IMG/VR virus record: IMGVR_UViG_3300020576_006124
Span: 32,001-96,000 of that record
Direction: 5' to 3' (one strand)
Length of the DNA stretch: 64,000 nucleotides
Source of the DNA: a virus
Taxonomy: Duplodnaviria > Caudoviricetes
The position numbers and the translations under genes are program-made. The notes beneath the pieces are model-generated. The model was not told the DNA's origin. It did not search any database and saw only the letters and a program-made list of their open reading frames with translations. Below, one piece after another: positions 1-23,121 of the stretch. The number at the start of each line of letters is the position of its first letter. Within the stretch, counting starts at the first letter, position 1.

Positions 1-69
1 AGGCAATCTATCTCAACCAACTAAGATAGATTTATATTCAAAACATCTTTTAGATTTAATAGAAGTCCT

Positions 70-801
70 ATGATGCAGATTGAAGCAAAACACCTTTTTC
101 CGGAGAGAGCCAAGCATCTTATTACTAAATTAAATCTAAACAAAGAGGGAGTAATCAATAAAGAAGGTTTTAATAAAGCTAAGAGCATTCTAGAAACCAC
201 AACATTCTGGCATAATGATCAGAAAGGTGGTATAGAATCTTTCTTACCAATCATTACTCCTAAATTTCCAGAATATAAATCCACCCAATTAGATTTTATC
301 CTTAGTTCTATCTCAGGTATTGTATTAAAAGGAGAATATGCTTACTATGGGAAAAGGTTCGATACCCCTTCTATTATCTTAAATCATTCCCCAGTTCTAG
401 TACTCCCTACTTTCGTTTTGATTCCTGGTCGCCAAGAGGATTACTACCCTTTTACCTTAACTTTAACTACTAAAGAATTAATAAGAGAGTCCGTACTGAT
501 TTCCCTTAATAACGACGGGGATCTTAAAAGTACTTCAATAACAGATGATTACCTGGAAAAGTTAGGACAATTAGATGAAAGAGAGGCTATCTTAGTTAAA
601 GGCCCTACTTGTGAATGGATTAAAGGTCTAAGGGAGATTAGCCAAAGCCATAATACAAATCAGGTAGATTTATTTGAACCCTGTGTAAGAACTTTAGAAA
701 TGTTCTGCATTCAAAACAATTTTACTTGTAAAGGACAGCAATTAAATGAACGCATACAGCTTCCCTATAACATTCTCGAAAGTCTCTTTGAGTTTCTATG
801 A
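70..801 (+). CDS. Hypothetical protein, member 1 of a 3-paralog family with a conserved Cys-Glu (AILVKGPTCE)
   Basis: 243-aa ORF; C-terminal third resembles 798..1421 and 1991..2716. Confidence 0.6.
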   Translation: MMQIEAKHLFPERAKHLITKLNLNKEGVINKEGFNKAKSILETTTFWHNDQKGGIESFLPIITPKFPEYKSTQLDFILSSISGIVLKGEYAYYGKRFDTPSIILNHSPVLVLPTFVLIPGRQEDYYPFTLTLTTKELIRESVLISLNNDGDLKSTSITDDYLEKLGQLDEREAILVKGPTCEWIKGLREISQSHNTNQVDLFEPCVRTLEMFCIQNNFTCKGQQLNERIQLPYNILESLFEFL

Positions 802-1421
802 GTACGGATTTTAATTCTCTTTCTGGGATTGATATAAGCTTAGTAGGGGATAGAATTGAGATTAGAAGCAGATTTTATCCACTTTCTCCTGTCATCCATG
901 CTAGATTTATTTGCGCGGGATTAATAAGTACTTCTACCCCTATACCTGGAGTAGAACTAAATATTAACGACGTTTCTTGTACTATTTCAGAGTGTGTCTT
1001 CTTCATTCCTTTTGCTGATAGTAAAGAAACATTTATGGAAGAAGATTTACATATAGTTCCTGGATTTTTAGCTAAAAATCCAAATAATGGAAATCATATT
1101 TTAGGTTTTTCGACAAAAAAATTGATACTTAATAATTCTATACATCGTTCTGAGAACATACCTAGGGAAAAGATTAGTCCTTATCTTTCTAGATTCTCAG
1201 ATTCAGATCTTATTTTTATAAAAAGCAAAGAATGTGAATATGACTCAGGTTACTTTGATTCAAGCTGTCACTATATCGCACAGAAGACTTACTTAGAACC
1301 ATTCCCTAGAACGGTAGAAGAATTTGTCCTAGGTTACTTAGAAAGACCTTTTGAGGGGAAGAAACCTTCCCCAAAATTAAAGGTAGCAAAAGAACTAGGT
1401 GAATTAATAGAGATCCTTTAG
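798..1421 (+). CDS. Hypothetical protein, paralog family member 2 (LIFIKSKECE)
   Basis: 207-aa ORF with ATGA overlap to the upstream gene; shared CE motif and C-terminal helix. Confidence 0.6.
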   Translation: MSTDFNSLSGIDISLVGDRIEIRSRFYPLSPVIHARFICAGLISTSTPIPGVELNINDVSCTISECVFFIPFADSKETFMEEDLHIVPGFLAKNPNNGNHILGFSTKKLILNNSIHRSENIPREKISPYLSRFSDSDLIFIKSKECEYDSGYFDSSCHYIAQKTYLEPFPRTVEEFVLGYLERPFEGKKPSPKLKVAKELGELIEIL

Positions 1422-1460
1422 TACAATTTTTCTTGGACAGTCGAAAGACTGGTCTTCGGA
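1422..1460 (+). promoter_or_regulatory. Putative -10 box (TACAAT) followed by a 5' leader hairpin with GAAA tetraloop
   Basis: TACAAT 1422-1427; stem cagtc-GAAA-gactg 1438-1451, extendable to 1436-1454; overlapping tc-TTCG-ga 1453-1460. Confidence 0.45.
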
Positions 1461-1478
1461 GATAAAAAAAACGAAACT

Positions 1479-1916
1479 ATGAATAGCTACTCTAGCAATT
1501 CCCGAGTCACGATTTTTGTGACTGCGGGTAAGGGCTCTACAACGCCCGAAGTTCTTTCTCTTAGTGATCTGGGAGTTGACCCAGCTAACTACACTGCAGC
1601 GACTGCCAATCAGTCTATTCAGGAGAAGATGGTGGAACTCATCGTCGAAAATCCTAATTTGACCGCTGATGCTTTGACTAAGCTTGCCCAAGCAAGTCAG
1701 GCTCTGGATGGGGCAGACCCCTCTAAGCTTCTCCCTGCAAAGGTTGTGGATGCTGTTTACGATCGACTCACTACGCACAGCCTCTATCAAGGAGCTACAG
1801 CAGAAAAGAAGCTTCAGGTTAAGAAGGGGGATCTTCAAATCTCTCAGAACCCCCACCCAACCAATCCTGATCTGTCAACCTTTACAATTACGGTTCCCAG
1901 TACCTGGGGATTCTAA
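1479..1916 (+). CDS. Putative ubiquitin-like (beta-grasp) protein with C-terminal W-G-F
   Basis: VTIFVTAGKGSTTPEV resembles ubiquitin MQIFVKTLTGKTITLEV; STFTITVPSTWG aligns without gaps to ubiquitin STLHLVLRLRGG; E1-like gene two ORFs downstream. Confidence 0.55.
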   Translation: MNSYSSNSRVTIFVTAGKGSTTPEVLSLSDLGVDPANYTAATANQSIQEKMVELIVENPNLTADALTKLAQASQALDGADPSKLLPAKVVDAVYDRLTTHSLYQGATAEKKLQVKKGDLQISQNPHPTNPDLSTFTITVPSTWGF

Positions 1917-1932
1917 TCTAGAGGAAATGGAT

Positions 1933-1958
1933 TTGGGGGGAGGTAATACTCCCCCCAA
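1933..1958 (+). terminator. Perfect 10-bp hairpin after the Ubl-like gene (terminator or 3' stabiliser)
   Basis: ttggggggag-gtaata-ctccccccaa; no immediate U-tract. Confidence 0.55.
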
Positions 1959-1990
1959 CCAGAGCTTTAAAGCAGGAGTGGTATAACCAA

Positions 1991-2716
1991 ATGAATCTAG
2001 ATCTAGTCTTCAAGACTTACCAAAAAAATCCAAACGCCATTTCAGGGAATTTTATCCACGGTAGCTTCTCTAGTACTGCTCTTCATCCTTTTTTTAATAG
2101 CGGACTAGATGAGGTTATTGAATCTATTAATCAAACTTTCAGGGGAGAGTTTAAGTCTGATGTGGTTCCCTGCTTTGGGTTCTATTTCAACGACGGGACA
2201 TCTTCACTGCATGCAGCTGCGAAACTAAATAAGTGTACCGTTATAGATTTTAGTTTAGTGGAGAAGGAGAACCTTTGTCCCTTTGCCGTTAGTAAAGGCT
2301 CTTCCCTTCCCAAAAACTATAAGATTACCTGCAACGAGAAAAGTTGTTTATTTGCGGGGAGGGCTTACATTATTAACCCTATCCATCTAGAGAGTAATAC
2401 TAGATTGGGATTCTATATGATCGCTCATATAGATGAAGTATCAAAATTCTATAACGATTTTGTCTCTGAGGAGTATTCAAATAGGGTGATAGAGACGTTT
2501 AAGGGCGAAGAATGGGTATATATCAGCTCTACCAACTGTGAGAGAGTTACTCCTAGTAGTAAACAAGAATCTATTCATTTACTTAATCCTATAGACTACC
2601 CATTTACTCCTTACAATTACTTAATATCGAGAGCTCTACTACAAGCTGAAGTAATAAAACCTATATCTTTTAAAGACTTGGGGTTACTAGCTGAATTGGC
2701 TAGTGTATTGGGTTAG
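1991..2716 (+). CDS. Hypothetical protein, paralog family member 3 (WVYISSTNCE)
   Basis: 241-aa ORF between the Ubl-like and E1-like genes. Confidence 0.6.
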   Translation: MNLDLVFKTYQKNPNAISGNFIHGSFSSTALHPFFNSGLDEVIESINQTFRGEFKSDVVPCFGFYFNDGTSSLHAAAKLNKCTVIDFSLVEKENLCPFAVSKGSSLPKNYKITCNEKSCLFAGRAYIINPIHLESNTRLGFYMIAHIDEVSKFYNDFVSEEYSNRVIETFKGEEWVYISSTNCERVTPSSKQESIHLLNPIDYPFTPYNYLISRALLQAEVIKPISFKDLGLLAELASVLG

Positions 2717-2724
2717 TCAAAGAA

Positions 2725-3495
2725 ATGAATGTACTTGTCATTGGAAGTGGTGCCGTTGGAAGTTTTGCAGTTAATTATATTGCAAGACTTTCTAGGACTC
2801 AGAATTTACCATTAGCTCTCGTTTTAGCAGACTTTGATACTGTCGAAGAGAGAAATGTTTATAGTCAGGACTTTACCTTTGAGGATATAGGAAAGAATAA
2901 GGCAGAAGTTACTGCTAAGAAAGCCTCAGAGTACATTAACAGCATAACTGCCTTTCCTGAGAAGGTAACCCCTGAAAACTTAAAGTCTTTACATGAAGAG
3001 TATAACTTCGATTGTATAGTTATCACGGTAGATAACCAATTTTCCCGAGTAGTTCTTAACACAGCTGGAACCATGGGTCTAAAAATTCCAGTACTACATT
3101 CTTCCATAAACTTAAATGGTACTGGTCAAGTATCTTGGTCCTACTTTAGCTCAGCTAAAAACTGTTATAGGTCTTCTTGGCCGGAAGACCCGGATAAACT
3201 TACTGCGGAGCAGCTTACTTCTCTTATGAGCCCAGAGAAAACCTCATCTCCTCCCCCTTGTGAGTTATTCCCTTTTGTACCTCTGATTCAAACTGCCGCT
3301 ATGGAGACAGCTTTGTCCTTGAGCACCTTTATAGGAAATGACCTTCATAAGGAAGTACTAAAGGTTCTTCGGGATAAAGGTACTCCCGAAGAAACTCTCC
3401 AAAATCTACCTACTAGTACCAAAGGATTTATGCTATCGAGAATTATCTCATTTAACACTAGTACCCTAACAGATCTTTTTCACCAAGATGCCTAA
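2725..3495 (+). CDS. ThiF/MoeB/E1-family adenylyltransferase
   Basis: GSGAVGS nucleotide-binding loop, ADFDTVEERNVYSQ, DIGKNKAEV, TVDN..SR, crossover-loop PPPCE (Cys179). Confidence 0.92.
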   Translation: MNVLVIGSGAVGSFAVNYIARLSRTQNLPLALVLADFDTVEERNVYSQDFTFEDIGKNKAEVTAKKASEYINSITAFPEKVTPENLKSLHEEYNFDCIVITVDNQFSRVVLNTAGTMGLKIPVLHSSINLNGTGQVSWSYFSSAKNCYRSSWPEDPDKLTAEQLTSLMSPEKTSSPPPCELFPFVPLIQTAAMETALSLSTFIGNDLHKEVLKVLRDKGTPEETLQNLPTSTKGFMLSRIISFNTSTLTDLFHQDA

Positions 3496-5818
3496 AAAAA
3501 AGAGTAAATTCGGCAATAAGTCTAAAATTCATTCTACAGAAAGTAAAAATAATATACCACAAAAAAAAAGAAAAAACAGAAGGTACGAAGATTTGAGCTA
3601 CATCGAAGAATTTTACGGTCAAGGGAATCACGGGATGCATACAACTACTCACTACTACTCATCTAAGAAATGTAGAGTATTTGGAGTATGTGCAGAGGAG
3701 ACCCCTGATCAGATTATTTTCTGTGATGGATACTCCAACTATAAAGAGGAGGAGTTACGAAAACAACTAGCCATTCATTTCAAGTTTAAAAACTACGCTT
3801 GGCCCGATGGTACAAATTTTCAGGTTTTCATCGTACCTAAAAAGAATCTTCCTTATATTAAAAAAATCTCTTCAAATAAAAGTGTCCTTTGCTGTGCCCA
3901 TGACGGTACTAAGGCTTATTTAAAGGCACATCTCGGAATTGAATTACAGTCCTCTGATAGGGATTGGTACTGTAATCACCCACAGACAGAAAGTAGTGGT
4001 CTTCCAGCACATTTTACCTTCCCTGTAATTCAATCTCTGATTAAGCCTTACAATATAGGTTTCTCAGAAATAATGGTAAAGATTCCTATGAATCTTGCCT
4101 TCCCTGAAGGATTTACTTTCCAGGATTTATACGGAAGTTATATGGAAGCCCTTGGTTGGCATCCTCTTTCTATTGCTTTATGTAATACAATTTCTGAGCC
4201 TACTCACGAAAATATTATAAACCTTCTAGAGCAAACCTTAAAAGAGATTCAATCTAATGAGTCCTATAGTGATCTTATTAAAGATAAACTAAGTGAACCG
4301 TATAGAAACGCTATAAAAGCTCAAAAAACAGCTCGGTTCACTTTCTTTAAAGAGGATCAAGAAGTCTGGGGTAAAGCATGGGTCATTACTCGGGAAGGGG
4401 TAGCTAATGGAAGAGGGGGTGTTGGACACGCTGAGTATATGGCTGTTAGAGAAAGAAAATCTAATATCTATCAGGCATTTAGATTTGATCACCTAAGTAA
4501 CTGCAATTACTCTTCAGAGCCTTTCCTTTTAGATTATGATCTGGAACAAAACTATACCTATCAAATAGATCCAGACCTTATCATGATTGAACAGGTCAAC
4601 AGCAAGGGAGAATTAGAGTTAAAGAAACTACAGTTCATGATTAACTCTTCCTACTCTCCAAATAATAGCAGTAATGTTATCTACGGAAGGGGGAACAGTG
4701 GTTCAACCGGGGCAGCTTATCATCCCTCTGTAACCGCAAACCCCTTAGAAGGAAGTCTAGACGCTTACGAACTTGCTAAAACACTATTAGCAGAAAATGA
4801 GAATAGTAAAATTACTAGGTCTCTTTCTTCTAATAGCCCTTTGACTGTAACCCACTTCAACGTTGAAGATACTGCAGTAGAAGCTCAGTCGGGAATGTTC
4901 GATTTCGTTAACTCTACTGGGTACAATCTATTTGAAAATATGATGGAAGATTATCTTGATCCTAAAGACCTTCCGAATTTACTCCCACTATATTATATAG
5001 ATGTAGACACTCAGATTTCCGATTTGAGTACCCTTGATAAAATCTACCAATCCTTTGCTTTGGGTTCAGTGAACGAAAGTGGTCTAAGGTCTGTATTTAA
5101 GTCTATAAAGGATAGTGTTTTCTATGAAACATGCTCTCCTGCTTCTTTTTTATGGGTAATGGATGAGAATCTCCCTAGAGAGATTAACTCTGAGTTTTTG
5201 AGAGTTCTTACTAAAGAGTGGGAAGAAGTTGCCTTTCCTTATATCTTAAAAGAATCTTTTGGGCCAAGTAATTCCTCAGAATTCTTTAACCTAAAGAAAT
5301 CTATTACCTCTATTCCTAATATTAAGTCAATCAAGGCTTCTACGGAGATCTTAGAGTCTAAGCTGGGAACTAACTTTATTGCATTTTTGCATACAAAAAA
5401 TCATAGACCTGACTTACTCTCATGTTGGAGTTCTCCAATGAGTCCTAAGTCTCAATTTGAGTATTTTAAATTATCTGTAGTTAATGGCTTCTTGAAACTT
5501 TTAGACACCTTTAGTGAATCATTAATTAGTGACTGTGAAGACCTATCCTGTACTACAGAAGATATAATAAATTCTTATTATGATAATTTTAGAGCAATAC
5601 TTGCTAATATGCCTGGTAAATACCGGATAGAAGATAGTGAAGAGTTTGTATCCAATCTTGGTAACGCTGCTAGGTATTATGATGTATATTATTTTGCTGT
5701 AGCTGTTTTAGCCCTGTCTGATAATCCAGATATATGTTCCCTAAGACATAAACTAGCAAGCATTCTTCATATCTTAATTTTTAATGTAACTGATTTTTCC
5801 ACTACAGGAGTTTGTTAA
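3488..5818 (+). CDS. Large hypothetical protein, basic N-terminus, overlapping the E1 stop codon
   Basis: 776-aa ORF; no family recognised. Confidence 0.7.
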   Translation: MPKKKSKFGNKSKIHSTESKNNIPQKKRKNRRYEDLSYIEEFYGQGNHGMHTTTHYYSSKKCRVFGVCAEETPDQIIFCDGYSNYKEEELRKQLAIHFKFKNYAWPDGTNFQVFIVPKKNLPYIKKISSNKSVLCCAHDGTKAYLKAHLGIELQSSDRDWYCNHPQTESSGLPAHFTFPVIQSLIKPYNIGFSEIMVKIPMNLAFPEGFTFQDLYGSYMEALGWHPLSIALCNTISEPTHENIINLLEQTLKEIQSNESYSDLIKDKLSEPYRNAIKAQKTARFTFFKEDQEVWGKAWVITREGVANGRGGVGHAEYMAVRERKSNIYQAFRFDHLSNCNYSSEPFLLDYDLEQNYTYQIDPDLIMIEQVNSKGELELKKLQFMINSSYSPNNSSNVIYGRGNSGSTGAAYHPSVTANPLEGSLDAYELAKTLLAENENSKITRSLSSNSPLTVTHFNVEDTAVEAQSGMFDFVNSTGYNLFENMMEDYLDPKDLPNLLPLYYIDVDTQISDLSTLDKIYQSFALGSVNESGLRSVFKSIKDSVFYETCSPASFLWVMDENLPREINSEFLRVLTKEWEEVAFPYILKESFGPSNSSEFFNLKKSITSIPNIKSIKASTEILESKLGTNFIAFLHTKNHRPDLLSCWSSPMSPKSQFEYFKLSVVNGFLKLLDTFSESLISDCEDLSCTTEDIINSYYDNFRAILANMPGKYRIEDSEEFVSNLGNAARYYDVYYFAVAVLALSDNPDICSLRHKLASILHILIFNVTDFSTTGVC

Positions 5819-5824
5819 AACGAA

Positions 5825-6970
5825 TTGAACCTACATAAACTTGATATAATTTACGACAAAGGTAAGGTCTCATCCTTTGGGTTCAGGGACCTTACCTTCC
5901 TTGGTAACTACTCCATTTTAGGGAGTAGGATGTACTCTCAACCTAAGGCTAGAGTCCTGGACTATGGTCATGCTCTCCCCATAATCAATGCCAATATGTC
6001 TAATATAGCTGGTATTGATATGATTAAGGCTCTACTTATCAACGAGTGTTTTGCCAGCACATCGAGATTTCACTGGAAAAACGAAGACTACAAGTCTAAA
6101 CTACAAAGCTTGATAGAAAGTAACCCTGAGTATCTTTCTAATCTATTCTTTAGTATTGGTGCTTCTTCAGAAGACCTAAGAATCCTAAAAGAGTTTTGTC
6201 ATAAGATCTACCTAACTGTATTAAATAAACTACCACATACAAACTATAAATTTAACCTTCTTATTGATGTTGCTCATGCTAACAGCATTGCCGTAAGCAA
6301 CTTTATGAAGAATAATACCTTTGACGAGTTTAATATTTTCATAGGCAATTACTTTGGCCATGAATATAAAGAATTCGACAGATTATACTCTTTAGGCATA
6401 AAAGGTATTAGAGTAGGGATAGGCCAAGGAGGAAGTTGTCTTACAACTAATGGAACAACATTCGGACTTCCTACCCTAACTTCTGTATACCTTGCTGACC
6501 GATGGAGAAGAGAAAAGGGAATAAATCCCTCAGACTTCATTATTATTGCTGATGGTGGTATTACTGGCCCTGGAGACATTATTAAGTGTTTACATTTTGG
6601 GGCTAATATAGTCTGTCTTGGATCGTATCTTTCAGATTGTAAAGAAAGACCCGGAAGATTAAAAAGAGACTGGCTTAAATTTGGAAAACCTTACAAGGAA
6701 TTTTATGGAATGTCTTCTCACAAATCCATTAAGGAAAGAGTTGGGCTAGTAAGAGAAGGAATCTCCTCAGAGGGATTAGTTAAGAAGGTTTATATAAAGA
6801 CCGAGGTGGCTCATAAGGTATCTGATTTCGCTTCCTTTTTAAGATCTGCTATATCTTATGCTGGAGTTGAAACAGTAGATCATCTGCATCATAAGTGTGA
6901 CTTTGAGTTTATTAGCCCTAGTGTAGCAGCTTATAACGCGAGTAAAGATGAATTCCTTAGAAAGTACTAA
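5825..6970 (+). CDS. guaC: GMP reductase-like protein (IMPDH/GMPR family, no CBS domains)
   Basis: IDVAHAN, RVGIGQGGSCLT (catalytic Cys), IIADGGI, GDIIK, FYGMSS...SEG; the flap region resembles GMPR more than IMPDH. Confidence 0.8.
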   Translation: MNLHKLDIIYDKGKVSSFGFRDLTFLGNYSILGSRMYSQPKARVLDYGHALPIINANMSNIAGIDMIKALLINECFASTSRFHWKNEDYKSKLQSLIESNPEYLSNLFFSIGASSEDLRILKEFCHKIYLTVLNKLPHTNYKFNLLIDVAHANSIAVSNFMKNNTFDEFNIFIGNYFGHEYKEFDRLYSLGIKGIRVGIGQGGSCLTTNGTTFGLPTLTSVYLADRWRREKGINPSDFIIIADGGITGPGDIIKCLHFGANIVCLGSYLSDCKERPGRLKRDWLKFGKPYKEFYGMSSHKSIKERVGLVREGISSEGLVKKVYIKTEVAHKVSDFASFLRSAISYAGVETVDHLHHKCDFEFISPSVAAYNASKDEFLRKY

Positions 6971-20877: not shown

Positions 20878-21177
20878 ATGAGGGAGAACAGGACATTGAG
20901 GTCGGGAGAACCATGCCGACACCCTGGGTGCCTAAGTCACATTTCGCACTCTTGCGAGTGCTGTGGGCGCGTAGGTGGGAGAAGCCTACGAGACCTTTTG
21001 CTGCATGAACGGGTTGATGTTAGGTGGTACGGTCAAAATGACTACTTGGGGCCATATGTATTCGAGGTGGACCTACATGAAGGCGACGTATTTTGTTCGC
21101 AGGGGCTCATTGTTGGGTCTATTCGCGACGTGGCCTCATGGCGATTACATGTGCCAAAAGAGCTGGCGGACCTATGA
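20878..21177 (+). CDS. Hypothetical protein, Cys/His-rich N-terminus and D-V-x-S-W-R C-terminal domain
   Basis: AGGAG RBS; CRHPGCLSHISHSCECCG. Confidence 0.6.
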   Translation: MRENRTLRSGEPCRHPGCLSHISHSCECCGRVGGRSLRDLLLHERVDVRWYGQNDYLGPYVFEVDLHEGDVFCSQGLIVGSIRDVASWRLHVPKELADL

Positions 21178-21263
21178 CGAGCAGGAACAAACGCCTACCC
21201 CATGTAAGACCAGGACGCTGGGCCGCGTTTGGGTCAAGCCCCTGGGAGTGAGAAGAAAGAACG

Positions 21264-22193
21264 ATGAATATTGGAACAAGTTGGCATAGCTACCCAAAGA
21301 TTTACAACGTAGGCCACGCCTATCTGGAAGGTTTTTTTGATGGATCGTCCTGGTTGTCGGTTGAAGAAAAGGTAGATGGATCACAGTTTAGCTTTGGTGT
21401 ATTCGGGGGCGAGATTAAGTGTCGCTCGAAAGGCCAGGAATTGATTGTTGAGCGTCCCGAAAAGATGTTTGCCCGCGCGGTGGAGTCTGTCAAAGAGATT
21501 GCCCATCTGCTTCGGGATGGTTGGACCTATCGGGGTGAGTATCTACAATCCCCCAAGCACAACACTCTCAAGTATGATCGCGTGCCGAACCTACACATCA
21601 TCGGTTTCGACGTGTCTCCCACCGAAGAGCAATATTTGATCTACGATGACAAAACTGAGGAGTTTGCTCGTATCGGGCTTGAGGTTGTTCCTCGCATCTG
21701 GCAAGGCACGCACCCTGACCCCAAATCTCTCATGGATACCGAGAGCATTCTCGGCGGATCGAAGATTGAGGGGCTTGTGTTCAAGCGACATGCGAACCCA
21801 CTGTACGGGCCCGACAAAAAGGTGTTGCTTGCCAAGCACGTTTCGGAGGCGTTCAAGGAGGTCCATAGCAAGGAGTGGAAGAGAACTAACCAGACCGGAA
21901 AGGACTTCGTGGGCGCTCTTGCCGAACGGTATTGCGCTGAGGGCCGATGGGCCAAAGCCGTCCAGCGGCTCACGGAATCAGGCGTGGCGACGAACACACC
22001 ACAAGACATTGCAGCACTGATCGCTGAGGTTCAGCGTGACATTAAAGATGAGTGCCGCGAAGAGATCATCAAAGAGTTACTTTCCTATGCCTGGCCCCAT
22101 ATTGCCCGAGCATCTGTGCGCGGTTTGCCGGACTGGTACAAGAACCGACTCATGGAATCCGCCATTGGGTCCATGCCCCAGGAGGTCGAATGA
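21264..22193 (+). CDS. ATP-dependent RNA ligase (Rnl2-like)
   Basis: Motif I EEKVDGSQ, GEY, IGFDV, EGLVFK, AKHVSEAFKE; helical C-terminal domain. Confidence 0.85.
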   Translation: MNIGTSWHSYPKIYNVGHAYLEGFFDGSSWLSVEEKVDGSQFSFGVFGGEIKCRSKGQELIVERPEKMFARAVESVKEIAHLLRDGWTYRGEYLQSPKHNTLKYDRVPNLHIIGFDVSPTEEQYLIYDDKTEEFARIGLEVVPRIWQGTHPDPKSLMDTESILGGSKIEGLVFKRHANPLYGPDKKVLLAKHVSEAFKEVHSKEWKRTNQTGKDFVGALAERYCAEGRWAKAVQRLTESGVATNTPQDIAALIAEVQRDIKDECREEIIKELLSYAWPHIARASVRGLPDWYKNRLMESAIGSMPQEVE

Positions 22194-22483
22194 AGATCAC
22201 CGTCCGCCAGGCATTCAAGAAGGCGTATGGGCCGATCCCAGATGGGGCTACGTGCCATTTGGCAAACTGGCCCGGTCCTACTTTGCCCCAATTTATGAAC
22301 ATTGAGCCTACCATATGGGAAGACGGCTGGCCTGAATCCCTGGGAACACGCGAGGACGGTAGCCCTGGAGTAATGGAATATCCCTTTGGCCCCGACATCT
22401 CAGATCGCGACGCAGAAGCCTTCCGGGGTTTATTCGGGGACGATTACGACAAAGCCCTAGATGGGCTGTTGGGGGCTGAATGA
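22190..22483 (+). CDS. Hypothetical protein (true start likely ATG 22190)
   Basis: GGAGG RBS and ATGA overlap with the ligase stop. Confidence 0.6.
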   Translation: MKITVRQAFKKAYGPIPDGATCHLANWPGPTLPQFMNIEPTIWEDGWPESLGTREDGSPGVMEYPFGPDISDRDAEAFRGLFGDDYDKALDGLLGAE

Positions 22484-22713
22484 CTTGGTCCGAGGCGATT
22501 GCCACTTTGGGGGTGGTTGGTCTATTTGGACTCCTTGTATGGACAAGCCACAGGGAGAACATGGCAAGATATGCTCTCTTACAGAAGACCGTGGAACTAG
22601 AGGAGATATTGAAGGATGCACCAAAGCAGGTGAGCGTCGGCAAGAAGTGCATCGCACGAGGAGTGATACGCAAAGTAGCACCACCGGTAACATTGGAGGA
22701 TGAGAATGTCTAA
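22480..22713 (+). CDS. Small protein with an N-terminal transmembrane helix
   Basis: AIATLGVVGLFGLLVW; ATGA overlap. Confidence 0.6.
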   Translation: MTWSEAIATLGVVGLFGLLVWTSHRENMARYALLQKTVELEEILKDAPKQVSVGKKCIARGVIRKVAPPVTLEDENV

Positions 22714-22721
22714 GCAGAGTG

Positions 22722-22741
22722 TGGAGGTGCCCCGTGGCTAA
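22722..22741 (+). repeat. 20-bp direct repeat, copy 1 (RBS + GTG start + upstream stop)
   Basis: tggaggtgccccgtggctaa. Confidence 0.9.
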
Positions 22742-22967
22742 ACACGACCTCAAGATCAGGCAGATCACCGCTGTAAGCGTTCCAGAGAACTGCTTTACGC
22801 AATGCGAGGCGATCCTATTTGCCTTGACCGACGATGGCAGGCTCTTTCACACAACCAACAGGGACATGGGGGCCGTTTGGTACGAGGTAGGGCAGCCTTA
22901 CCTGACGGTCGATGAAAGAGACGCCATAGCCCCCCTCATGGCTGAGCTGGAGGTGCCCCGTGGCTAA
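22734..22967 (+). CDS. Hypothetical protein bounded by the direct repeats
   Basis: GGAGG then GTG 22734, MAKHDLKIRQ...EVPRG. Confidence 0.6.
   Translation: MAKHDLKIRQITAVSVPENCFTQCEAILFALTDDGRLFHTTNRDMGAVWYEVGQPYLTVDERDAIAPLMAELEVPRG
22948..22967 (+). repeat. 20-bp direct repeat, copy 2
   Basis: tggaggtgccccgtggctaa. Confidence 0.9.
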
Positions 22968-23121
22968 GAAGCTGTACGGGCAAGTCGGGCGCAACGGGGA
23001 GTTGCATTGGGTGGAAGCCTCTTCCGCTAAGTGGATCGCCGGGAGAATGTGGTTTGTGTACAATGCCCCCAACTGGGTCTTTTCCTATGAGAGTCCTGGG
23101 GGCTTTATACACTTTTCATAA
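22960..23121 (+). CDS. Small ORF crossing the island's right boundary, possibly truncated or chimeric
   Basis: GGAGG + GTG 22960, MAKKLYGQVGRNGELHW...; runs from GC-rich into AT-rich DNA. Confidence 0.4.
   Translation: MAKKLYGQVGRNGELHWVEASSAKWIAGRMWFVYNAPNWVFSYESPGGFIHFS

Follow-up and report, generated by a model that had tools for sequence, protein, structure and literature searches.

A phage locus pairing a minimal ThiF/MoeB-type E1 enzyme with a small, Gly-X-ending protein: a candidate ubiquitin-like activation module

The prokaryotic systems for ubiquitin-like (Ubl) protein conjugation that have been characterised so far are all defence or stress machinery encoded by the host, represented by the bacterial operons Bil (BilABCD) and Bub and by Cap2/Cap3 of the type II cyclic oligonucleotide-based antiphage signalling system (CBASS) (PMC11601596; 10.1101/2023.09.26.559546; 10.1101/2023.09.04.556158). 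These systems include a step in which the tag pre-protein is trimmed to expose a Gly, and a Cys in the crossover loop is treated as a hallmark of E1 proteins (PMC11601596). The literature searched on prokaryotic Ubl systems describes them as host-encoded only, with the addition of predicted E1 genes in Asgard viruses. Here we analyse a window of 64,000 nucleotides (bases 32001-96000) from the IMG/VR virus record IMGVR_UViG_3300020576_006124, a linear sequence of 197,239 bp; positions below refer to this window unless marked otherwise. The window encodes an E1-type enzyme and, two genes upstream of it, a 145-residue protein that we consider a candidate ubiquitin-like tag precursor (ORF145, for open reading frame). 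The original prediction, made from the letters of the window, had proposed that the two form a protein-tagging pathway of the phage's own.

Like Bil, Bub and Cap2/Cap3, the phage locus pairs an E1 of the type that activates protein C-termini with a small candidate tag. Unlike them, it lies on a phage rather than in a host defence island, its E1 is not of the IAD-AAD-CYS type, and its genome has no detected JAB peptidase or recognisable UBC-type E2; ORF145, unlike their tags, has no Ubl sequence signal and contains a helical insert.

By sequence, the product of the ORF at 2725-3495 (plus strand, 256 residues) is a genuine ThiF/MoeB-type E1 adenylation domain, located two genes downstream of ORF145 as had been predicted. 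Its score against Pfam ThiF (PF00899) was 79.1 bits (E = 3.6e-22) relative to a curated cut-off of 28.1, which places it in the superfamily, and a six-frame search of the whole genome returned this one ThiF only (80.6 bits). The best NCBIfam models were ThiF (2.6e-15), MoeB, the archaeal UbaA that activates SAMP (2.3e-12) and MoeZ, spanning 2.6e-15 to 2.7e-12, with all scores far under the equivalog cut-offs; the TcdA model, at 8e-5, fell far behind these four. PADLOC gave weak matches to Cap2 E1-E2 models (8.6e-8) and BilD (8.5e-4), and nothing for the neighbouring genes. A PDB profile search retrieved the active adenylation domain of Uba1 and E. coli ThiF, and the same kind of search with the C-terminal half of the protein retrieved nothing meaningful. 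Together with alignment, the Pfam, NCBIfam and PDB results describe a minimal E1-like adenylyltransferase of the ThiF/MoeB/MoeZ type with a crossover-loop Cys, Cys179.

Three homologues (51%, 50% and 37% identity) form with this enzyme a four-member phage clade in which G7/G9/G12, D36-F-D38, K59, D103, R108 and the segment SPPPC179EL are invariant. The glycines, D36, D38, K59, D103 and R108 are also shared with MoeZ-like relatives, and Pro177 and Cys179 occupy invariant columns aligned to the PNCS motif of three MoeZ-like adenylyltransferase/sulfurtransferases that came from the same search as the homologues. On this alignment, Cys179 and the crossover-loop Cys of MoeZ-type enzymes are homologous; Cys179 provides the conserved crossover-loop residue expected of a thioester-forming E1, and its catalytic role is predicted. 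The original prediction had thus described the PPPC179E loop correctly, as well as the lack of paired CxxC zinc sites (Cys occurs at 97, 147 and 179 only, so no CxxC pair exists), while its statement that the adenylation motifs are intact holds for GxGxxG, DFD, K59, D103 and R108 and fails for NxxRQ, where Ser47 stands in place of Arg. In being a single ThiF domain of about 250 residues, the phage E1 resembles MoeB, ThiF, the adenylation domain of MoeZ/Uba4-MOCS3, UbaA and Thermus TtuC, and it has the GxGxxG, DFD, Lys and Asp-x4-Arg motifs of the MoeB/ThiF/MoeZ types along with a Cys at the C-terminal end of the crossover loop. Unlike those enzymes, it lacks the zinc-binding CxxC pairs and a rhodanese domain, has Ser for the NxxRQ Arg, and contains insertions of about 20 and about 11 residues flanking the Cys179 region relative to the MoeZ-like proteins.

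The setting of the enzyme also differs from that of MoeB/ThiF-type proteins in having no sulfur-pathway genes: no match to ThiS, Rhodanese or the PP-loop family ATP_bind_3 was found at E <= 1 anywhere in the 197-kb genome, which extends to the entire record what had been claimed for the window. Sulfur-carrier E1 systems are marked by zinc-binding CxxC pairs in the enzyme, a partner of the rhodanese or sulfurtransferase kind, a carrier ending Gly-Gly and a downstream synthase; the phage locus does not show this set, its E1 having no CxxC and the candidate tag ending W-G-X. A metagenome scan with the E1 profile recovered only distant ThiF genes (at most 35% identity), and the closest ThiF in the GenBank phage collection, from Virus Rctr197k, is 27% identical and has a dissimilar neighbourhood.

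ORF145 (1479-1916, plus strand) is a real gene with the coordinates first assigned to it, and its product ends ...TVPSTWGF (W143-G144-F145). Searched exhaustively with HMMER, 1.84 billion representatives contained exactly two homologues, P0008 (50% identity, ending STWGF) and P0009 (38% identity, ending SQWGN). Trp-Gly is therefore invariant in all three termini, and the final residue is F, F and N; a conserved, capped C-terminal Gly, which the original prediction had anticipated among homologues, is present on the basis of these three sequences. Among the ORFs around the E1, a terminal Gly is conserved in ORF145 alone. A word-based search retrieved ORF145 itself only, an IMG/VR scan found no relatives, and the GenBank phage collection contained no match. 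The other hits of the HMMER search were tandem winged helix-turn-helix (HTH) repeat proteins, which match residues 36-75 only and owe their E-values to repetition. These residues (..LIVENPNLTADALTKLAQAS..), the first two helices of the insert, are similar to the repeat unit of tandem winged-HTH array proteins. No Pfam HTH family matched ORF145 at E <= 1, and the protein is net acidic (11 K+R versus 14 D+E).

The gene order is conserved in three diverged phages, namely the present one, L001 (a 13-kb contig from the Joint Genome Institute, JGI) and L023 (a more distant relative), and runs as follows: a double-psi beta-barrel (DPBB) protein, one or more paralogues of a family with an invariant Cys-Glu pair (the CE family), ORF145, ORF241 (itself a CE member), the E1, the orphan ORF776, and a GMP-reductase-like gene. 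Both homologues of ORF145 are located two genes upstream of the orthologous E1, and ORF241 always lies between them. ORF145, the CE family and ORF776 were found only together with this E1 clade; about 100 loci whose phage or metagenomic ThiF genes are more distant contained no homologue of any of the three. We consider this co-occurrence more telling than the synteny.

The fold of ORF145 was predicted with AlphaFold2 from the three-sequence alignment, giving a predicted local distance difference test (pLDDT) score of 83 and a predicted template modelling (pTM) score of 0.76, with pLDDT from 77 to 83 across the five models. The model has strands at 9-14, 24-27, 112-114, 120-124, 134-139 and 141-143 and helices at 40-57, 63-77 and 81-99, with a short turn between strands 120-124 and 134-139; the modelled order is that of ubiquitin (beta-beta-alpha-beta-beta-3/10-beta) with two extra helices. 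An unrestricted VIA search with this model was dominated by helix-pair matches to the helical insert. Structural matches were taken from a VIA re-alignment of Foldseek's own candidates, and about 20 of the 50 matches listed were ubiquitin-type beta-grasp domains aligned over nearly their full length. The ubiquitin, SUMO and ISG15 matches had Z scores of 4.2-4.8 and root-mean-square deviations (rmsd) of 2.6-3.5 over 59-67 residues; they include Caldiarchaeum ubiquitin (Z 4.8, rmsd 3.5, 67 residues), SUMO (Z 4.6), ISG15 (Z 4.6, rmsd 2.6) and ubiquitin itself (1cmx_B; Z 4.2, rmsd 3.2, 63 of 76 residues, with model residues 6-144 on ubiquitin 1-76). Streptokinase alpha, PI3K N-terminal domains, SARS-CoV-2 Ubl1 and several NUDIX proteins were also among the matches. 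In the model, residue 144 superposes on ubiquitin Gly76, and a viral protein of 64 residues from the ESM Atlas matched the ORF145 core (TM score 0.73, rmsd 2.1). The model is weakly indicative: it would fit a beta-grasp into which three helices are inserted, but falls short of proof. A prediction of the E1-ORF145 complex, run without controls, gave an ipSAE of 0.00 and counts neither way.

The best single explanation that we can offer, and one that we put forward tentatively, is that the two genes are a functional pair in which ORF145 may be a beta-grasp substrate of the E1. It is grounded in the family of the E1, the homology of Cys179, the conservation of the Gly-X end and the conserved adjacency of the genes; from the weakly indicated fold onward, we infer the pairing, trimming, thioester formation, transfer and targets. 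The locus would then be a self-contained, phage-encoded activation module of the E1-Ubl type. In this scheme ORF145, beta-grasp-like but with three inserted helices, would be produced in abundance as a precursor with a Trp-Gly-X end, from which a putative peptidase would remove the last residue; the 256-residue E1 would adenylate Gly144 and then carry it on Cys179 as a thioester. Protein targets would then receive the tag, perhaps via the invariant Cys of the CE paralogues (ORF241 and four others), although conjugation of proteins by this route is a further step that we regard as unlikely. Also improbable is a broader version in which the locus would represent a tagging system of orphan families that dispenses with both JAB and Gly-Gly, comprising a Trp-Gly-X tag of beta-grasp type with inserted helices, a minimal E1 derived from MoeZ, five CE carriers or ligases, and ORF776. 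In such a system the variable N-terminal halves of the CE paralogues might direct the tag to different host or phage targets, and ORF776 might be the processing or ligase component.

Several results weigh against the pairing of the E1 with ORF145 as a Ubl. At the sequence level, the match of ORF145 to ubiquitin at four points, on which the original prediction relied, does not rise above chance: the local alignment scored 24, compared with 26.1 +/- 4.6 for shuffled sequences (z = -0.46), and 1378 of 2000 shuffles reached that score. Alignment with hhalign gave probabilities of 0.06 against ubiquitin and 0.14 against a viral ThiS-like di-Ubl, no Ubl family in Pfam matched at E <= 1, and a PDB sequence-profile search returned nothing meaningful. 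The gap-free alignment of the C-terminal 12-mer to ubiquitin scores 9, a value reached by 26 of 5000 shuffles (0.5%), in a comparison that was picked post hoc. The terminal Gly is preceded by Trp, with no Gly-Gly, and the last residues of the model form a strand rather than a free tail. Of the predicted beta-grasp, the order of elements, the pLDDT of 83 and the ubiquitin-type Z scores are favourable, while Foldseek returned nothing at E <= 1e-3, every fold match had Z < 5, and POTRA domains tied with the ubiquitin-type ones (Z 4.5-4.7). In the E1, the motif that reads NLQRQ or NLHRQ in MoeZ-like proteins and NLNRQ in Uba1 is NVYSQ (N44-V-Y-S47-Q48) in all four phage homologues, so that the Arg is replaced by Ser47; R43 adjoins the motif. 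No match to Prok-JAB or UQ_con was found in the genome at E <= 1, leaving a conjugation reading without recognisable enzymes for trimming and transfer. Finally, while the gene order is kept in three diverged phages, the loci are collinear far past the block, which makes synteny weak functional evidence. The proposal that the phage encodes its own tagging pathway retains a real E1, a Gly-X end and a conserved gene order, but neither a peptidase for residue 145 nor a recognisable E2 was found.

It is quite possible that the E1 and ORF145 are unrelated neighbours, with ORF145 an abundant structural or regulatory protein containing a tri-helical, HTH-like insert, and with the E1 acting on host carriers of the ThiS, MoaD or TtuB type, on a nucleotide or on tRNA, or else, as a hijacker or decoy, on a Ubl of host defence such as BilA. 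Collinearity over many genes in the three loci is consistent with this, since adjacency may then reflect shared ancestry; so are the lack of Ubl signal in ORF145, the resemblance of residues 36-75 to a repeat unit of tandem winged-HTH proteins, the parity of POTRA and ubiquitin matches, the occurrence of lone ThiF-like genes in other phages, and the GMP-reductase-like gene two genes downstream. Against it, ORF145 and this E1 clade occur together in every sufficiently long locus and nowhere else, and the W-G-X end is conserved; ORF145 is net acidic and matches no HTH family at E <= 1, and the E1 is far closer to Ubl-activating models than to TcdA.

Two other possibilities keep ORF145 as the substrate and change the chemistry. 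In one, which we consider improbable, ORF145 would carry sulfur: once Gly144 had been adenylated by the E1, a persulfide donor of the host would turn it into a thiocarboxylate that serves to thio-modify tRNA, DNA or a cofactor. The closest relatives of the E1 are indeed the sulfur-pathway enzymes ThiF, MoeB and MoeZ, the phage encodes tRNAs, and capped sulfur carriers trimmed by a peptidase exist (QbsE with QbsD, CysO with Mec). This idea is weakened, however, because the genome, 85% complete, has no rhodanese, ThiS-family or PP-loop thiolase gene, and the E1 lacks a rhodanese domain; moreover, ORF145 ends in Trp-Gly rather than Gly-Gly and is twice the size of known carriers, and five Cys-bearing paralogues would be unexpected in a sulfur relay. 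In the other, the chemistry would be like that of MccB or PaaA: ORF145 would be adenylated by the E1 at its C-terminal residue without prior trimming, giving a C-terminally modified protein or a peptidyl-nucleotide. ThiF-family enzymes with such chemistry exist, and one ORF145 orthologue ends in Asn, but the final residue is not conserved (Phe in two of the three orthologues) and the E1 has no N-terminal peptide-clamp extension, its Rossmann motif being right at the start; we regard this possibility as very improbable indeed.

The expression signals around ORF145 set it apart from its neighbours. Its GC content is 0.48-0.51 and its GC content at third codon positions (GC3) 0.46-0.64 across the three phages (GC3 0.46 in the present genome), relative to GC3 values of 0.23-0.36 for neighbouring genes, and in all three phages it alone in the block is flanked by spacers of 50-75 nucleotides containing hairpins. 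In the 57-nucleotide spacer ahead of the gene, a hairpin at 1429-1462 (plus strand) has a folding energy of -12.1 kcal/mol (RNAfold), and the orthologous spacers in L001 and L023 also contain hairpins (-13.5 and -11.7 kcal/mol). A strong GC hairpin lies directly after the stop codon (1933-1958, plus strand), in a spacer that folds at -29.6 kcal/mol; the values are -20.5 kcal/mol in L001 and -27.8 kcal/mol in L023, where a U-run follows. This second hairpin is possibly a terminator or a stabiliser of mRNA; a simple scan for sigma-70 promoters and terminators did not call it and showed no enrichment over shuffles. A shared upstream word, TTCTCTTGG, is not enriched in the window, with 34 matches and 28 expected. 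Because of the raised GC3 and the flanking hairpins, we suggest that ORF145 is a separately controlled, highly expressed gene, which fits a stoichiometric tag and fits any abundant protein equally. When we checked whether high GC3 marks structural genes, the other GC-rich genes of the genome had no family assignment.

The CE family, as recovered by a family hidden Markov model (HMM), has five genes in this genome, five in L001 and two in L023. Its members here are a 280-residue protein upstream of the window (genome 30527-31369), a 235-residue protein whose 3' end enters the window (1-73, plus strand; genome 31366-32073), a 243-residue protein (70-801, plus strand; ..PTCEW..) that is similar to the preceding one (BLASTP, 6e-29) and, by alignment, has the invariant Cys-Glu with no Pfam, PHROG or PADLOC family, a 207-residue protein identified by the family HMM (798-1421, plus strand), and ORF241 (1991-2716, plus strand; motif TNCER.TPSSK), whose orthologues are 45% and 34% identical. 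Only the Cys-Glu pair (Cys183-Glu184 in ORF241) is invariant in the family, and the C-terminal third is more conserved than the N-terminal part. No protein-family, PDB or PADLOC match was found for the family. The AlphaFold2 model of ORF241 was of low confidence (pLDDT 56), with all structural matches at Z <= 3.1 and only noise from Foldseek; matches to the RWD/UBC superfold at Z 2.0-2.9 (Spc24/25, the Cap2 E2 domain, FANCL, Mad1, RWDD1 and BRE) are a weak lead to an E2-like fold or role. ORF776 (3488-5818, plus strand) has the N-terminal motifs CAxD, WYxNH and GHAEYM, orthologues in L001 and L023 only, and no family or PDB match; its start overlaps the E1 stop by 8 nucleotides, by which it is translationally coupled to the E1. 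IMG/VR scans found no relatives of ORF241 or ORF776, and ESM Atlas look-ups with both gave sub-threshold matches only.

Next to ORF776 in all three phages is a GMP reductase/IMPDH-like enzyme (5825-6970, plus strand; Pfam IMPDH 5.5e-35; NCBIfam GMP reductase 5e-34, below its cut-off) with the catalytic loop GIGQGGSCLTT, of the GxGxGSxCTT type. It probably belongs to nucleotide metabolism, remodelling the purine pool for an AT-rich genome, outside the module. Directly upstream of the CE array in all three loci is the DPBB_1 (RlpA-like) protein (L025:7976-8527; genome 29976-30527), which is 71% identical between this genome and L001, far above the conservation of its neighbours.

The genome is that of a large uncultured phage (GC ~35%; CheckV completeness estimate 85%) with genes for a ribonucleotide reductase, a DNA polymerase, a UvsX-like recombinase and a DnaB-like helicase, and with two tRNAs; it has no DNA-level relative among GenBank phages. 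Public runs from two studies contain its DNA, one of the studies being labelled riverine metagenome; no RNA run was listed among them. An Rfam scan of the window found tRNA only. Window positions 20900-23000 have a GC content of ~45-55%, compared with 35% for the genome, and contain many overlapping spurious ORFs on both strands, together with one ORF of 309 residues (21264-22193); the stretch has no Rfam match, and the genome has comparable GC-rich islands at 148-149 kb and 176-191 kb. About 13 kb ahead of the window, a 130-residue ORF (L027:8618-9010; genome 18618-19010) ends ...LIIFGRGG, a ubiquitin-like Arg-Gly-Gly end, and has no Pfam family.

The E1 search also led to viral loci that are more readily recognised as Ubl modules. 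Three IMG/VR viral contigs (L018-L020) encode, side by side, a 314-residue JAMM-motif protein (WHSHANMGVFWSTTD), a 216-residue ThiF-like E1 and a 136-residue tandem ThiS-family di-Ubl (L018:9004-11247, and likewise in L019 and L020). Each di-Ubl repeat ends ...LVPAVKGG, the last being capped by one Arg, and the protein matches Pfam ThiS (4.8e-9) and SAMP2 (2.4e-4). The original prediction's premise, that the Ubl systems of prokaryotes are confined to cells, is thus outdated. In another viral contig, a 96-residue ORF directly after a ThiF-like gene (L011:10584-10874) ends ...EGGGK and weakly matches Ub-Mut7C (8e-4) and ThiS (6e-3).

If the locus is a virus-owned tagging system whose tag, carrier and processing parts are unrecognisable, it would show that phages tag proteins for offence or to assemble themselves, the repertoire of E2 and Ubl proteins would gain new families, and the Gly-Gly rule of Ubl C-termini would have drifted more widely; if the E1-ORF145 pairing is false, a rare MoeZ-derived E1 would still be present in a phage clade without a sulfur pathway. 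The end of ORF145 resembles those of Atg8/Atg12-type modifiers, which have aromatic-Gly C-termini and of which yeast Atg8 is synthesised with one extra residue after the Gly, cleaved off ahead of activation by the E1. Unlike those eukaryotic proteins, to which it has no sequence relation, ORF145 lies in a locus from which the Atg7 E1 and Atg3/Atg10 E2 architecture is absent. Like L018-L020, its locus has a ThiF-type E1 on phage DNA and, beside it, a small protein whose terminal Gly is capped by one residue, but the L018-L020 Ubls, unlike ORF145, are recognisable ThiS/SAMP2 members with Gly-Gly and are accompanied by a JAMM peptidase, and ORF145, the CE paralogues and ORF776 are orphans unrelated to the parts of those modules. 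Because viral contigs already carry such E1-Ubl modules, the ORF145 locus is a divergent, less certain variant of an emerging theme.

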